DNA of 64,000 bases from an uncultured Bacteroidales bacterium (GTDB taxonomy: Bacteria; Bacteroidota; Bacteroidia; Bacteroidales; Paludibacteraceae), in assembly GCA_946404495.1 (NCBI GenBank), contig CAMJDT010000003.1, positions 4,630 through 68,629 of the forward strand. Reading direction: 5' to 3'. Positions 5,683 through 38,824 of the stretch are shown piece by piece. Made by a program: the position numbers and the translations under genes. The stretch's first letter is position 1. Each line of letters begins with the position of its first letter. Under the pieces are notes generated by a model, which saw only the letters and a program-made list of their open reading frames with translations, ran no database searches and was not told where the DNA came from.

Positions 5683-5714
5683 CAAAGGTACTGCTTTTTT
5701 TTGACATATGCAAA
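5683..5714 (-). promoter_or_regulatory. Promoter of the LRR protein gene
   Basis: The minus strand reads TTTGCATATGTCAAAAAAAAGCAGTACCTTTGCGCC (-33 TTTG, -7 TACCTTTG), about 30 nt upstream of the ATG at 5651. Confidence 0.6.
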
Positions 5715-11696: not shown

Positions 11697-11728
11697 TTTG
11701 GTCATATCAAAAAAAAGCAGTAATTTTG
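11697..11728 (+). promoter_or_regulatory. Promoter of tRNA-Glu (and apparently rpsT)
   Basis: TTTGGTCATATCAAAAAAAAGCAGTAATTTTGCACGC. The -7 box lies about 43 nt upstream of the tRNA. Confidence 0.65.
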
Positions 11729-23066: not shown

Positions 23067-23098
23067 CAAAAGTACGACTTTTTTTTGATATATGCAAA
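23067..23098 (-). promoter_or_regulatory. Promoter of typA (and possibly the typA-tig-mpl-deaminase-protease string)
   Basis: The minus strand reads TTTGCATATATCAAAAAAAAGTCGTACTTTTGCAGGC. Confidence 0.6.
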
Positions 23099-23250
23099 TA
23101 AATTTGCACTTTTTCTGAGAACGCTTTGATTTTTTTTCTGTTTTGGCATATCAATTCGCATTTTTTTTGCGTGAGATGAATAGAATTTATGACGTAGAAT
23201 GTGCCGTTTAGAACAGTATCATCACGGGACCATGTTACGATGACCTTACT

Positions 23251-23748
23251 GTCCTTTTCCCCGACTTCACCGAGCCATTCTCGAGACTTTCCCGAGTCAA
23301 TCTCGAGACAATCACAGGTCGTTTCCGATTCGATCCTAGACCATTGCCGAGTCAATCTCGAACCGTTTACGAGACAATCCTAGACTTTAGTCCTTCCATT
23401 CAGCCAATCACAAGCCAACCTCGCCCTATCAAATGACTCTCATAGTTGATATTTTTGCATGAGATTTTTGAGATTTTTGAGACTTTCCGCCGGATCCCCC
23501 TTATTTTACTGGATCTAACATAGTCTCACCAAAATCTCATAGTCTCACTTCATTTTTCTTCGTGTCGCTATGTCGCTTTGTCGCTGTTCCATTTTTCGTC
23601 GTGACGGTTTGACGGTTTGTCGGTTTCGTTCGGAATGCCTGTATTTAAAGGGCTTGTCGCTATTTCCCTATTCCGGCAAACCGTCATATTGTCATCATTC
23701 CAATTTTACTCTAGCTTAGTCCCTGTTCCGCTTCCTAAGGCTCTGGTA
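23251..23748 (+). repeat. Left arm of a long, patchy inverted repeat (core 23251-23310)
   Basis: 23251-23310 (GTCCTTTTCCCCGACTTCACCGAGCCATTCTCGAGACTTTCCCGAGTCAATCTCGAGACA) matches the reverse complement of 27096-27154 at about 51/60 positions. A second collinear patch at 23723-23748 matches the reverse complement of 26911-26936 at 23/26. Confidence 0.8.
23461..23626. repeat. Iteron-like cluster of short direct and inverted repeats
   Basis: GAGATTTTT x2 + GAGAC (23461-23483) faces GTCTCACCAAAATCTCATAGTCTCAC (23523-23548) as an imperfect inverted repeat. This is followed by TGTCGCT x3 (23563-23586) and GACGGTTT-like x3 (23603-23626). Confidence 0.7.
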
Positions 23749-23865: not shown

Positions 23866-23897
23866 TTTGCATATATCAGAAAAAAAACGTAATTTTG
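23866..23897 (+). promoter_or_regulatory. Promoter of TA-like module 1
   Basis: TTTGCATATATCAGAAAAAAAACGTAATTTTGCAGCG. The 62-nt leader is identical to the one upstream of module 3. Confidence 0.65.
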
Positions 23898-23959
23898 CAG
23901 CGATTTTGGGATACTATGTATCCGTGAGACAAAATCAATACGAGAAGGAGGATTGAATT

Positions 23960-24142
23960 ATGGCAACAGCAATTAAAGCGATTCCGACGCTGTATGGCGA
24001 AGAAGCAACACGTTTCCGCCAAATGGCAGAGGAGGCGGAGAGACGTTATGAGTCCACTCCGGTACGAGACCGCAGAAGCGATCCGTACGTTATTAACATG
24101 CGTACAATGCTACAACGTAGCGGAATGTCAGTCGCTTTATGA
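23960..24142 (+). CDS. Small protein (60 aa), putative antitoxin partner of the GNAT protein
   Basis: MATAIKAIPTLYGEEATRFRQMAEEAERRYE.... It has a 4-nt ATGA overlap with the downstream GNAT gene. Two paralogs in the window share the motif IP.LYGE(E/D)A.RF. Confidence 0.6.
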   Translation: MATAIKAIPTLYGEEATRFRQMAEEAERRYESTPVRDRRSDPYVINMRTMLQRSGMSVAL

Positions 24143-24762
24143 TTGATATCTTACGAGACTGTACATTGCATGTTTTGACGGATGATGTTCTTAAGGAATG
24201 TTATCCCTTTAGTTGTGGGCAGAACGATGATATGGATGAATTTTTCCGTGTAGATGCTCTGGAGTATGCCAAGTTTCGTATGGGAAAGTCGTATTGTTTT
24301 CGCCTAATTAGTGACCCTAAGCAAATCATTTGCTGTTTTACATTGTCGAGTGACAGTATTCGTATATACGATTTGCCAAACTCGCGCAAGAACCGAATGT
24401 GGGGAATAACGAATCGCGAGAAGATGTTGAGCCGTTATCCGGGTGTATTGATTGGTCGTTTTGCTGTTGACGCCAAGTATGCCAATCAAGGAGTGGGTTC
24501 GCAAGCTTTGCATTTTATACGTCGTTGGATAATGGAGGATGATGCAAAGATGGCTAATCGACTGGCTATAGTGGATGCTGTGAATAAACCGGAGGTATTG
24601 CATTTCTATGAAAAGAACGGTTTTACCCCTCTCTTTTCATCGGAACTACAGGAAGACTTGTACACCAAGCGTCCATTGAACGACGCTGATCGACAGGACC
24701 GCGAGCAACATCCTCGCCATCTTAGTACAAGGTTAATGTTTTGTGATTTGTTGACTTGCTAG
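24139..24762 (+). CDS. GNAT-family N-acetyltransferase (207 aa), putative toxin of a type II TA-like pair
   Basis: Acetyl-CoA motif A (GVLIGRFAVDAKYANQGVGSQALHFI) plus FYEKNGF. The gene is translationally coupled to the small upstream gene. Confidence 0.7.
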   Translation: MIDILRDCTLHVLTDDVLKECYPFSCGQNDDMDEFFRVDALEYAKFRMGKSYCFRLISDPKQIICCFTLSSDSIRIYDLPNSRKNRMWGITNREKMLSRYPGVLIGRFAVDAKYANQGVGSQALHFIRRWIMEDDAKMANRLAIVDAVNKPEVLHFYEKNGFTPLFSSELQEDLYTKRPLNDADRQDREQHPRHLSTRLMFCDLLTC

Positions 24763-24770
24763 TCATAAAA

Positions 24771-24950
24771 ATACACATCTAACTTGCGGATGTAAAATGC
24801 AAGCCGCTGGGGCCGATAGCGTTAAAAAGCGGTGACATGTTGATTAAGTTTATAGACGCGAAATTTTCAAAAAGAACTGAAGAGTCCATAAAATTGAAGA
24901 AAAATGACATAAAATTTGCATATGTCATTTTTTTGTTGTACCTTTGCAGC
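24771..24950 (+). repeat. Cassette-junction repeat, copy 1 (full length, ~180 bp, contains promoter)
   Basis: ATACACATCTAACTTGCGGATGTAAAATGCAAGCCGCTGGGGCCGATAGCGTTAAAAAGCGGTGACATGTTGATT...AATGACATAAAATTTGCATATGTCATT...TACCTTTGCAGC. It is about 90% identical to copy 3 (26467-26646). Confidence 0.9.
24915..24946 (+). promoter_or_regulatory. Promoter of cassette 2
   Basis: TTTGCATATGTCATTTTTTTGTTGTACCTTTGCAGCC. The -33 box sits inside the 8-bp-arm palindrome AATGACAT-N11-ATGTCATT. Confidence 0.6.
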
Positions 24951-24975
24951 CCAAAGGTATGCAAAGGAACTAACA

Positions 24976-25173
24976 ATGGTAGAATTGAAGAACATAAGAT
25001 GGAGCGATTTTGAGGTTGTAGATGCACCCAAGCACGAGTTGAAACCCGGGCAGAAAGTGCAATGCACTTACTTTCGTATAAATCCGGGTAGCTACAAACC
25101 TGTGCACTCAAATCTTACCATTACGGATATGCCAAAAGAGTTATATGATGCGTTCTTTCAAGCAAGAGTATAA
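24976..25173 (+). CDS. Small hypothetical protein (65 aa)
   Basis: MVELKNIRWSDFEVVDAPKHELKPGQKVQCTYFRINPGSYKPVHSNLTITDMPKELYDAFFQARV. The start is moved to the first ATG downstream of the predicted TSS. Confidence 0.45.
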   Translation: MVELKNIRWSDFEVVDAPKHELKPGQKVQCTYFRINPGSYKPVHSNLTITDMPKELYDAFFQARV

Positions 25174-25231
25174 TTGTCAGGCAGAAGCAATCATTACTGA
25201 AGCAGTAGATTAATAGAAAGAGGATAAAACT

Positions 25232-25402
25232 ATGGCACGACCAATTGCAGAAACACCGATTTTGTATGGCGAAGATGCGCTTCGCTTCATACAGAGAGCG
25301 CAGTATGTGGAAAGTCTGTCCAAAACACAGCGGCAAGCTAATCTCAGAGCTTTAGAAGATCGTTTGGCTCGATCAAAACATCAAATAGAGTTCTGTTTAT
25401 AA
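25232..25402 (+). CDS. Small protein (56 aa), antitoxin-like paralog (orphan)
   Basis: Manual translation gives MARPIAETPILYGEDALRFIQRAQYVESLSKTQRQANLRALEDRLARSKHQIEFCL. It shares the P.LYGE.A.RF motif with 23960-24142 and 25653-25823. Confidence 0.55.
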   Translation: MARPIAETPILYGEDALRFIQRAQYVESLSKTQRQANLRALEDRLARSKHQIEFCL

Positions 25403-25405
25403 GAG

Positions 25406-25480
25406 ATGAATATTGTTCCGCTGACAAAGGACTACGCTTTGACCGCATTTGATTGTGGCGACAGGGTTAAAAAGCGTTGA
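25406..25480 (+). pseudogene. 5' remnant (24 codons) of a GNAT toxin-like gene, truncated at the cassette-junction repeat
   Basis: MNIVPLTKDYALTAFDCGDR|VKKR*. The FDCGD motif aligns with PFSCGQ/PFVCGS of the two intact GNATs. Homology to the junction repeat begins exactly at GTTAAAAAGCG (25466). Confidence 0.6.
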
Positions 25481-25594
25481 CATGTTAATTTGGTTATTGA
25501 CGCGGAATTCTCAAAAAAGACCGTAAAGTCCATAAAAATGAAGAAAAATGACATAAAATTTGCATATGTCATTTTTTTTGTGTAATTTTGCAGC
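25466..25594 (+). repeat. Cassette-junction repeat, copy 2 (5'-truncated, ~130 bp)
   Basis: GTTAAAAAGCGTTGACATGTTAATTTGGTTATTGACGCGGAATTCTCAAAAAAGACCGTAAAGTCCATAAAAATGAAGAAAAATGACATAAAATTTGCATATGTCATTTTTTTTGTGTAATTTTGCAGC. Confidence 0.9.
25559..25590 (+). promoter_or_regulatory. Promoter of TA-like module 3
   Basis: TTTGCATATGTCATTTTTTTTGTGTAATTTTGCAGCG, with the same palindrome over the -33 box. Confidence 0.65.
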
Positions 25595-25652
25595 GATTTT
25601 GGGATACTATGTATCCGTGAGACAAAATCAATACGAGAAGGAGGATTGAATT

Positions 25653-25823
25653 ATGGCAACAGCAATTAAAGCGATTCCGACGCTGTACGGCGAAGAAGCA
25701 TTGCGCTTTTTAACCGCTGCTCAAGCCGCAGAGAGGCGCTACGATGAGCGAGGACCAATTGATTGGTCGCAAACACAAGGTGTGCAAACAGCACGCCAAA
25801 TATGGGCTAATATGATGCAATAG
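25653..25823 (+). CDS. Small protein (56 aa), putative antitoxin partner
   Basis: MATAIKAIPTLYGEEALRFLTAAQAAERRYDERGPIDWSQTQGVQTARQIWANMMQ. The first ~50 nt and the 5' leader are identical to module 1. Its stop lies 2 nt before the GNAT ATG. Confidence 0.6.
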   Translation: MATAIKAIPTLYGEEALRFLTAAQAAERRYDERGPIDWSQTQGVQTARQIWANMMQ

Positions 25824-25825
25824 AC

Positions 25826-26464
25826 ATGAGTTTCCTGGCAGACAATTGTTTACTTAGTCCATATACGGAAGATGTGCGTCAAGCATGTCTGCCTTTTGTG
25901 TGTGGTAGTGAAGACATGGATGAGTTCTTCGCTAAAGATTTTGCTGCCTACGCTCATTACTTAATGGGCAAATCCTATTGTTTCCGACTTAAGGAAAGTC
26001 CCAAACAGATAGTGTGTGCATTTACGATCAGCAATGATAGTATACGAATATACGATTTGCCACGCTCACGACGAGACTATATGAAAGCCATTACGCACCA
26101 TGAGAAGCATTTACGCAGATACCCCGGTGTGTTAATTGGACGATTGGCTGTAGCAAAAGAGTTTGCCGGTAAAGGCGTTGGATCCGCAGTATTGACATTT
26201 GTGAAAGACCTGTTCTCCGATCCGGCGATACAAACAGGTTGCCGATTTATAATTGTAGATGCCGTGAATTCTCCTGAGATATTGTCCTTTTATCAGAAGA
26301 ACGGTTTTGTATTCCTATTTACTACTGAGGGACAGGAGGCATTATACACCTATCCGCCCAAGGATGAGGAAGAACGTCAAGCGTTGAAGAATAATCCGCA
26401 TCCATTGCAAACACGATTGATGTACTTTGATCTTCTTGATTTGAAGAATCAAAAAGAACAATAA
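25826..26464 (+). CDS. GNAT-family N-acetyltransferase (212 aa), paralog of 24139-24762
   Basis: GVLIGRLAVAKEFAGKGVGSAVLTFV plus FYQKNGF. By eye it is collinear with, and roughly half identical to, the first GNAT (MGKSYCFRL, DSIRIYDLP, RYPGVLIGR, IVDAVN). Confidence 0.7.
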   Translation: MSFLADNCLLSPYTEDVRQACLPFVCGSEDMDEFFAKDFAAYAHYLMGKSYCFRLKESPKQIVCAFTISNDSIRIYDLPRSRRDYMKAITHHEKHLRRYPGVLIGRLAVAKEFAGKGVGSAVLTFVKDLFSDPAIQTGCRFIIVDAVNSPEILSFYQKNGFVFLFTTEGQEALYTYPPKDEEERQALKNNPHPLQTRLMYFDLLDLKNQKEQ

Positions 26465-26466
26465 CG

Positions 26467-26646
26467 ATACACATCTAACTTGCGGATGTAAAATGCAAGC
26501 CGCTGGGGCCGACAGCGTAAAAAAGCGGTGACATGTTGATTAGGTTTATAGACGCGAAATTCTCAAAAAGGGCTGTAAAGTCCATAAAAATGAAGAAAAA
26601 TGACATAAAATTTGCATATGTCATTTTTTTTGTGTAATTTTGCAGC
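26467..26646 (+). repeat. Cassette-junction repeat, copy 3 (full length)
   Basis: Same unit as copy 1. It starts 3 nt after the GNAT stop. Confidence 0.9.
26611..26642 (+). promoter_or_regulatory. Orphan cassette promoter (no ORF for ~830 nt downstream)
   Basis: TTTGCATATGTCATTTTTTTTGTGTAATTTTGCAGCC. The next credible start codon on this strand is 27474. Confidence 0.55.
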
Positions 26647-26910
26647 CGTATTCGTTTTACGCTGCGTGAGTGAGATTTTTTGTAGCTCACGTCGGGAAGT
26701 GTCCTATTAGTGCGAGGCGGGTACAGGACATGATAAAAAGCGTCTTAAATGCGCTTTGTTTTGGCATTCTGAAATCTGGTAAATTTCGATAACTTCCAAG
26801 ACAATGTGACACTAAGATGCTCATGGTGTATATTGTAAGTGCACGCGTACGCGCGTGTATATATACATATTGGCGTGGGCTTCGGTGTTGCTGTTTGGAA
26901 GTAAAGGCAA

Positions 26911-27154
26911 TACCAGAGCCTCAGAATGCGGAACAGCAAGATTGCAGTCCCGCTTTTTTCGTGTGTACATGAGTGGAAGGGATTAAGCTATAGAGGAAAG
27001 GACTAAGCCAGAGTGGAGGGGACTAAGTGGGGACCAAGCTGAAAGGGGGCAAGGTGAAAAAAGGAACAGGCTGTGAGGGAAGTGAATTAGGAAATGACTC
27101 GAGATTGGATCGGGATTTTCTCGAGAATGGCTCGAAGAAGTCGGAGAAAAGGAC
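26911..27154 (-). repeat. Right arm of the long patchy inverted repeat (core 27096-27154)
   Basis: See the left arm. The reverse complement of 27096-27154 is GTCCTTTTCTCCGACTTCTTCGAGCCATTCTCGAGAAAATCCCGATCCAATCTCGAGTCA. Confidence 0.8.
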
Positions 27155-27372
27155 AAATGGACAAATGGAAAAATGGACAAAAAGGACCAAGTAACAATAC
27201 AAGCGCAATACAAGTAGGATACAAGTACAATACAAGGTAGAGAGAAAAAGTGCAGAAAGTGCAGAAAGTGCAAAGCAAAATTTTAAGAGTGCCAGAGTGT
27301 CAGAGTGTCAGAGTGCCACGACAAAAAAATGAAATGGACAAATGGACATATGGACAAAATGGACAGAGTAAA
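27151..27372. repeat. Block of five different short tandem-repeat arrays (8-11 nt units)
   Basis: (GGACAAAT)x4, degenerate, at 27151-27186. (CAATACAAG-N)x4 at 27195-27237. (AAAGTGCAG)x3 at 27247-27273. (AGAGTGYC)x4 at 27286-27317. (ATGGACAWA)x4 at 27333-27366. Confidence 0.8.
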
Positions 27373-27473
27373 ATTACGATAAAGTAACCCACCAGTGACG
27401 TCCACGATGATCGCGAGATGGTCACGGAGGAGGAAGCAAAAAAATAGAAACTATTAAAGCACAAGATATAGTT

Positions 27474-38792: not shown

Positions 38793-38824
38793 TTTGCATA
38801 TATGAGAAAAATGTTGTACCTTTG
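38793..38824 (+). promoter_or_regulatory. Promoter of the AAA ATPase gene
   Basis: TTTGCATATATGAGAAAAATGTTGTACCTTTGCAGC. Confidence 0.6.

Follow-up and report, generated by a model that had tools for sequence, protein, structure and literature searches.

GNAT toxins have been studied almost entirely in Proteobacteria, partnered with DUF1778 antitoxins. The toxins AtaT, TacT, KacT and GmvT acetylate the amino group of aminoacyl-tRNA and so block translation. Here we analysed an array of genes for small proteins and GNAT acetyltransferases in an uncultured rumen bacterium of the Bacteroidales (Paludibacteraceae; assembly GCA_946404495.1). The array lies in an island of foreign DNA within a stretch of 64,000 nucleotides (nt) of contig CAMJDT010000003.1, hereafter called the window, and consists of three promoter-bearing units, cassettes 1 to 3. 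Cassettes 1 and 3 each carry a small gene coupled to a GNAT gene, and cassette 2 carries remnants. In our judgement the small-protein/GNAT pairs are probably a variant of the GNAT toxin-antitoxin (TA) systems of type II, with a new partner family, and the array consists of two diverged intact modules and relics that were probably assembled by recombination in a defence island.

The described GNAT/DUF1778 systems AtaRT, TacAT1-3, KacAT, ItaRT and GmvAT have the GNAT fold, the N-terminal F-x-CG motif, the acetyl-CoA loop and the catalytic tyrosine in common with the pairs in the window. They also resemble them in having a coupled small gene directly upstream and in being patchy, multicopy and located on mobile elements. 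In contrast to these systems, the partner in the window is an unrelated protein of 50-60 amino acids (aa) with no predicted DNA-binding domain, the long-type GNAT is about 30-45 aa longer and the GNATs form a separate clade. A precedent for a GNAT toxin with an antitoxin family other than DUF1778 is the DUF4065-GNAT pair VcaAT (PMC9177977), whereas the partner studied here has no DUF4065 match in Pfam and is much smaller. Bikmetov et al. 2022 (PMC9177977) delineated a 'true TA clade' of GNATs that are partnered with DUF1778 and, in one subclade, with DUF4065. Outside this clade they found TA-like bicistronic GNAT loci with short, divergent upstream open reading frames (ORFs) lacking DNA-binding domains, and the pair family of the window may be one of these types. 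No published description of the Bacteroidales pair was found in the literature that we searched. On the cfiA element of B. fragilis, the genes called 'GNAT/XAT' appear to stand in another gene context.

The acetyltransferases and their relatives

The preliminary description, made from the sequence of the window alone, had compared the acetyltransferases to TacT, AtaT and KacT. Sequence searches and the predicted fold both bear this out. Both GNATs scored above the Pfam cut-offs for Acetyltransf_7 and Acetyltransf_1. When they were compared with the PDB sequences, as single sequences and as a profile of 22 family members, the best matches were GNAT TA toxins. The profile matched AtaT at 1e-10, AtaT2 at 3e-9, KacT at 2e-8, GmvT at 5e-8 and TacT3 at 6e-8, and the top 15 matches were all GNAT TA toxins. 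The alignments to the toxins run from residue ~6 to 175, nearly the full length, and cover the F-x-C-G motif, the G-x-G loop for acetyl-CoA and the FY segment. Two glycines of the acetyl-CoA loop (Q/R-x-x-G-x-G/A), G117 and G119, are invariant in the family alignment. The same holds for Y156 (GNAT 3 numbering), which lies within F-Y-x-K-N-G-F and aligns with the FY of AtaT; the numbers of the catalytic tyrosines (AtaT Y144, KacT Y145) were taken from the titles of the PDB entries. An AlphaFold2 (AF2) model reached a predicted local distance difference test score (pLDDT) of 86 and a predicted template modelling (TM) score (pTM) of 0.85. In a Foldseek search with this model the top 37 matches were TA toxins (E 2e-9 to 2e-7, target TM-score 0.63-0.78), followed by NAT10.

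The GNATs had also been described as longer than the usual toxins, and we found ~30-45 additional residues. In the long-type GNAT they lie in an extended basic loop that follows the D-L-P-R-S-R segment and in a helical stretch inserted ahead of the last strand. A maximum-likelihood tree placed the DUF1778-partnered GNATs of the same order in a separate clade with 100/100 support. In the same tree the GNAT type of 200-212 aa was a well-supported clade among short forms that have the same new partner. Canonical pairs of DUF1778 and a GNAT of 164-168 aa were present in 13 of the 201 sampled genomes of the order.

The small partner protein

The three small proteins of the array begin with the near-invariant sequence M-A-x-x-I-K-A-I-P-T-L-Y-G-x-x-A-x-R-F, and their C-terminal halves are variable. 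The other two small proteins are 50% and 33% identical to the first. A profile search of 1.84 billion representative sequences with the partner retrieved 524 clusters at 50% identity. Among the best 150 of these 524, all were short stand-alone proteins except two long repetitive ones, and none was fused to a known domain. The partner family was also found upstream of shorter GNATs of 170-186 aa with an FDCGD motif.

That the partner does not resemble the usual DUF1778 antitoxin had been noted from the sequence, and our searches extend this to every named family that was compared. The three proteins of the window and 52 further family members had no match in Pfam, and the partner had none in NCBIfam or PADLOC. 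Against the PDB sequences no match was obtained at E<=10, and the AF2 model of the partner gave no significant match in Foldseek. When the partner profile was compared by hhalign with ten DUF1778 antitoxins from the same order, the probability was 0.1%. These database negatives and the hhalign result rule out that the partner is an antitoxin of the RHH/DUF1778 type or a detectable fragment of one, and they lend no sequence support to reading it as the toxin-binding tail alone of such an antitoxin. The nearest named Atlas clusters were YhfG and VbhA, with scores of only 0.46-0.47.

Modelled alone by AF2, the partner was an N-terminal coil followed by two helices, with a pTM of 0.39 and a pLDDT of 63 for the first ten residues. 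A fusion was then modelled from a locus that has both genes in one frame, using the read-through product with the stop codon replaced by glycine and a paired plus unpaired alignment. In this model (pTM 0.85) the partner region had a pLDDT of 81-89, the N-terminal 10 residues reached 81 and a beta-bridge was formed at residues 10-11. The model suggests that the invariant N-terminal peptide of the partner docks on the GNAT. That the motif stays invariant while the GNAT subtypes differ greatly would fit a contact with a conserved surface, for example the active-site cleft.

AAGGAGG sequences, strong Shine-Dalgarno (SD)-like motifs that are unusual for Bacteroidota, were found 8 nt ahead of the small-ORF start in cassette 1 (Table 1) and, at 25638-25644, in cassette 3. 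AGGAG-like motifs also precede many homologous small ORFs in other species.

Conservation of the pair and its proposed function

When genomes representing single species were scanned with a pattern, at least 361 loci for relatives of the GNATs came to light, of which 80 loci from other species were kept. Both genes were intact and separated by a gap of 2-25 nt in 68 of the 80. In seven loci an intact small gene stood beside a disrupted GNAT gene, in one a recognisable small ORF was absent, and four were interrupted by the end of a contig. The 133 nearest flanking ORFs matched 138 Pfam families, none of which recurred more than 4 times. Neither a conserved third gene nor a biosynthetic operon was found among these flanking ORFs, and the mutually unrelated neighbours rule out a biosynthetic operon as the general context of the pair.

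The distribution is patchy: of 81 genomes of the genus, 15 had any match to the family. In Segatella copri DSM 18205 the pair (homologue WP_006848195) is carried by a 59-kb plasmid and annotated as 'hypothetical protein' and 'GNAT family N-acetyltransferase'. Relatives of the pair were also found on Parabacteroides plasmids and in the temperate Bacteroides phage BS-TP1, next to the phage integrase. The survey of co-occurrence that the preliminary description had proposed thus shows that the two genes are conserved as a self-contained module, whose contexts are variable and not biosynthetic and which is also carried by mobile elements.

How such a module might work can be outlined from these relationships. 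Each intact unit would be a self-contained, self-promoted module of the toxin-antitoxin type, and its downstream GNAT has its ancestry and active-site architecture in common with AtaT, TacT, KacT and GmvT. The coupled upstream protein of 50-60 aa most likely binds and neutralises the GNAT directly. Its N-terminal peptide probably touches a conserved part of the GNAT, and the variable helical hairpin probably sets the cognate specificity.

The homology, the fold, the conservation of the pair, its context and the mosaic structure and decay of the array are shown by the data; we infer the toxicity of the GNATs, their tRNA target, their neutralisation, the binding through the N-terminal motif and a role in abortive infection or in stabilising the island. 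Several points weigh against this reading. Bikmetov et al. 2022 (PMC9177977) explicitly leave open whether GNATs with short upstream ORFs outside the DUF1778 clade belong to TA systems. The docking of the peptide is read from confidence values only, and the fusion and the partner-alone models are of different family members. The 7:1 bias towards loss of the GNAT gene in the decayed loci is close to the ~3.6:1 expected from gene length alone, and some of the disruptions may be errors in metagenome-assembled genomes. No palindrome or motif was conserved across 78 upstream regions; the palindrome in cassette 1 (Table 1) sits in the leader that is common to cassettes 1 and 3. Classical type II autoregulation is therefore unsupported, as the partner lacks a recognisable DNA-binding domain and the loci have no conserved operator. 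Contigs of a sheep RNA library span all three cassette bodies, and contaminating DNA could be their source.

The GNAT could instead be a non-toxin that acetylates the small protein, for example at its invariant N-terminus or at Lys6, or another cellular target, so that the pair would be a regulatory or modification module. A motif that is near-invariant across very different GNAT subtypes is what a substrate or recognition peptide would show, the partner has no antitoxin-like domain, and the function of such pairs was left open in PMC9177977. However, the nearest relatives in sequence and fold are all tRNA-acetylating toxins. In addition, the pair is patchy, multicopy and borne by plasmids and a phage, its neighbours are variable, and its decayed copies retain the small gene and drop the enzyme. 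We regard a modification module as unlikely, and a toxin-antitoxin variant remains our preferred reading.

Assembly and decay of the array

The ORFs, the four promoters, the three junction repeats and the 99%-identical leader segment were all recovered within a few nt of where the preliminary description had placed them (Table 1). Its canonical Bacteroidota promoter ahead of each cassette corresponds to the pattern TTTG-N17-23-TAnnTTTG on the + strand, which has 15 matches in the 64-kb window against a chance expectation of 0.66. The junction repeat that it had seen before cassettes 2 and 3 and before the empty position behind cassette 3 is present as two copies that are 92% identical (copies 1 and 3) and one partial copy (copy 2). 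The coupling of a small ORF to a GNAT gene in cassettes 1 and 3 and the contents of cassette 2, an unrelated ORF, a third paralog of the small partner and a GNAT stub, were also as described.

Table 1. Features of the array, with positions in the window
Feature	Position	Strand	Basis
Promoter of cassette 1 (TTTG ... TAATTTTG)	23866..23897	+	pattern search
Leader of cassette 1; identical to the cassette 3 leader	23898..23959	+	sequence, repeat comparison, identity profile
Palindrome GGATAC-TAT-GTATCC in the cassette 1 leader	23909-23923	+	sequence
SD-like AAGGAGG in the cassette 1 leader	23945-23951	+	sequence
Small partner 1, 60 aa; near-invariant N-terminal motif MATAIKAIPTLYGEEA-RF, then two helices	23960..24142	+	ORF, alignment, model
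GNAT 1, 207 aa, TA-toxin-like; start overlaps the stop of the small ORF (ATGA)	24139..24762	+	ORF, Pfam, PDB-sequence searches, tree
Junction repeat copy 1: 3' flank with dispersed core (24806-24836) and cassette 2 promoter (24915-24946)	24765..24951	+	
65-aa ORF; opens an unrelated module of two genes, the other of which elsewhere encodes a retropepsin-like protease	24976..25173	+	
Retropepsin-like aspartic protease gene, 21-codon stub	25148..25213	+	alignment to intact module elsewhere
Small partner 2, 56 aa (MARPIAETPILYGEDALRF...); subtype pairing with 170-186-aa GNATs	25232..25402	+	
Short-type GNAT stub, 24 codons; ends ...FDCGD, then enters the junction core	25406..25480	+	
Junction repeat copy 2, 5'-truncated; degenerate core (25458-25481) and cassette 3 promoter (25559-25590)	25459..25594	+	
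Small partner 3, 56 aa	25653..25823	+	ORF, alignment
GNAT 3, 212 aa, TA-toxin-like; 2 nt after the small ORF	25826..26464	+	
Junction repeat copy 3: core (26502-26532) and orphan promoter (26611-26642), no cassette behind	26461..26647	+	

The cassettes had also been described as amplified in tandem, and this claim did not stand. A common leader and first coding nt with a diverged remainder had been reported for cassettes 1 and 3, and the segments 23889-24007 and 25582-25700 are indeed 99% identical. This segment is 119 nt long and runs over the -7 box and the leader into the coding sequence, of which it includes the first 48 nt. In a sliding comparison of the two cassettes in 40-nt windows, identity was 97-100% at 23900-24000 and 85-97% at 24766-24945 and dropped to 27-77% in between. 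GNAT 1 and GNAT 3 are 54% identical and fall into different subclades of the maximum-likelihood tree. Cassettes 1 and 3 therefore have only their flanks in common, and the tree and the identity profile (bodies 27-77%, flanks 85-100%) rule out that one arose as a tandem duplicate of the other.

Cassette 2 is a patchwork of two truncated modules. Its promoter, the 65-aa ORF and the 21 codons that follow correspond to a module in which, at other loci, the small gene is overlapped by a gene for a retropepsin-like protease of 145 aa. The 56-aa protein and the stub of 24 codons match short-type pairs of related genomes. In both remnants the small gene was kept and the enzyme gene was cut. At the joint between the GNAT stub and the junction a microhomology of 7 of 8 nt was found, so a simple deletion is enough to explain it. 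The module of the 65-aa ORF (24976-25213) is rare, and its intact relative elsewhere ends in a retropepsin-like aspartic protease (PF13975); it may be another toxin-antitoxin-like or defence pair.

From this mosaic the following history can be proposed. Diverged modules of different sublineages would have gathered at the edge of a low-GC defence island by recombination between their common flanks. On the 5' side these would be the generic promoter with its leader, and on the 3' side a dispersed element that is specific to the lineage. Later deletions would have removed the enzyme genes of the two middle modules and spared the small partner genes.

The junction repeat proved to be a composite. 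Its 5' part contains a core of ~33 nt, GCTGGnnCCGACAGCGTWAAAAAGCGGTGAC, which is present in all three copies, and its 3' part is the extended promoter consensus of the genome. The 3' half is thus no special repeat, and its identity with the promoter consensus accounts for its more than 30 partial matches across the genome. The promoters of this genome have an unusually long consensus (TTTGCATATATCA-A-run-G-nn-GTAnnTTTG), for example at 5683-5714, 11697-11728, 23067-23098 and 38793-38824, and this leads to many near-identical matches of 35-60 nt between unrelated intergenic regions. With a strict pattern of 24 nt the core had 8 matches in the 2.1-Mb assembly, and a more degenerate further copy was found on contig C44. 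It was present in only 3 of the 24 genomes of the same genus that were searched, and in none of the 80 pair loci of other species.

In the preliminary description the array was likened to an array of gene cassettes. The TA cassettes of sedentary chromosomal integrons, such as the Vibrio superintegron, are indeed similar in that self-promoted TA modules stand in one orientation with a repeated intergenic element between them. In contrast to cassettes of the Vibrio type, we found no IntI and no attC-like site here, the repeat is a dispersed core plus a generic promoter, and the units would have been assembled and eroded by homologous or microhomology-mediated recombination. The analogy is superficial, since an attC-like structure, an integrase and promoterless cassettes are all missing.

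A wider version of this idea is that the array is a site-specific cassette system, integron-like or similar to Xer/dif modules, in which the ~33-nt core is the recombination site that shuffles accessory modules. It draws on the position of the core, which follows unrelated cargo at 8 places of the genome and also occurs in the three related genomes. Named from their sequence motifs, the cargo genes encode a nucleotidyltransferase of the MNT type, proteins resembling RhuM and KilA-N, and a zeta-toxin-like pair. Sometimes the core stands directly behind a promoter without cargo, and besides the GNAT stub a second truncated gene abuts it. Moreover, the cassette bodies differ and their flanks are nearly identical. 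However, when junction copies 1 and 3 were folded as RNA and as single-stranded DNA, neither strand showed an attC-like hairpin or a structure signal (z -0.9 to +0.7), and the conservation of the core extends ~15 nt past any putative crossover point. The two tyrosine recombinases (PF00589) of the assembly, which is 87% complete, are encoded on contigs C1 and C20 and none on C3, the contig of the array. Every unit has its own promoter, and a simple deletion explains the microhomology at the joint of the GNAT stub. Taken together, these results make a site-specific system very unlikely, and recombination between common flanks remains our explanation for the array. A structured RNA in the junctions was ruled out by the same folds and by a search of Rfam, which returned a sub-threshold match to rimP only.

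Unitigs with 0-6 differences to each cassette body were found in the sheep RNA library and in three metagenomes of ruminant guts that stem from different studies. The parts of the array are therefore real. The unitigs of cassette bodies 1-3 had similar depths, which in one metagenome were 32.4, 34.9, 36.0 and 31.7. As the breaks between the unitigs fall at the repeats, cassette order has no independent confirmation. An assembly artefact, in which separate loci were joined through the common junction and leader repeats, would agree with these breaks in all runs, with the lack of a read-level record across any junction and with the dispersed repeats that often lie at contig ends, but we consider it extremely unlikely, because the cassette bodies have near-equal depth within each of the three metagenomes, junction copies 1 and 3 differ at 8% of their positions and each runs into unique sequence, and heterologous tandem pairs exist in another genome of the genus. 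In that species two heterologous pairs of a small protein and a short GNAT lie back to back on one strand (G080:C14:1900-4300), so the tandem stacking of modules recurs.

A segment of low GC content (0.32-0.47 compared to 0.53-0.58 in the flanks) has the array as its left edge. The neighbouring abortive-infection system that had been reported was identified as a RADAR-like pair in this low-GC island, consisting of an RdrA-like ATPase and a protein with an adenosine deaminase domain. In the region 26611-27473 the promoter of the last junction faces ~830 nt of dispersed and short tandem repeats, which are followed by the RdrA-like gene. Contigs of the RNA library cover 26750-26956. The inverted-repeat arms at 23250-23310 and 27095-27155 were considered as the ends of a transposon and rejected, as these flanks are dispersed repeats with 20-40 partial copies in the genome, many of them at contig ends. 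A second nest of accessory genes made up from the same dispersed repeats lies on contig C4 (500-6000) of the same genome and is bordered by the ~33-nt core at either side. A nucleotidyltransferase of the MNT type is encoded in this nest, together with two small ORFs and a third pair of small protein and GNAT (C4:3715-4490).

We also considered a bolder proposal, to which we give little credence. The partner would be a new type of antitoxin without a DNA-binding half, whose near-invariant N-terminal (M)ATAIKAIPTLYG plugs the conserved substrate cleft of the GNAT by acting as a pseudo-substrate in imitation of the free amino group that aminoacyl-tRNA carries, and whose variable hairpin provides the cognate specificity. 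Separately, the ~33-nt core would be the mark of a recombination system other than an integron, through which small defence modules of two genes are gathered and eroded in this lineage.

The family of the pair is large, with at least 361 species loci and 524 partner clusters, and it occurs in Bacteroidales of the gut and the rumen, on plasmids and in a temperate phage. Segatella copri DSM 18205 is a cultured strain with a pair that can be tested. The array next to RADAR is a natural experiment, since it combines two cognate pairs that have diverged with an orphan partner and stubs of putative toxin genes, and is suited to questions of cross-neutralisation and of the assembly and decay of defence islands. 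If the pairs are true TA systems, they would represent a second way to neutralise and regulate a toxin that acetylates tRNA.

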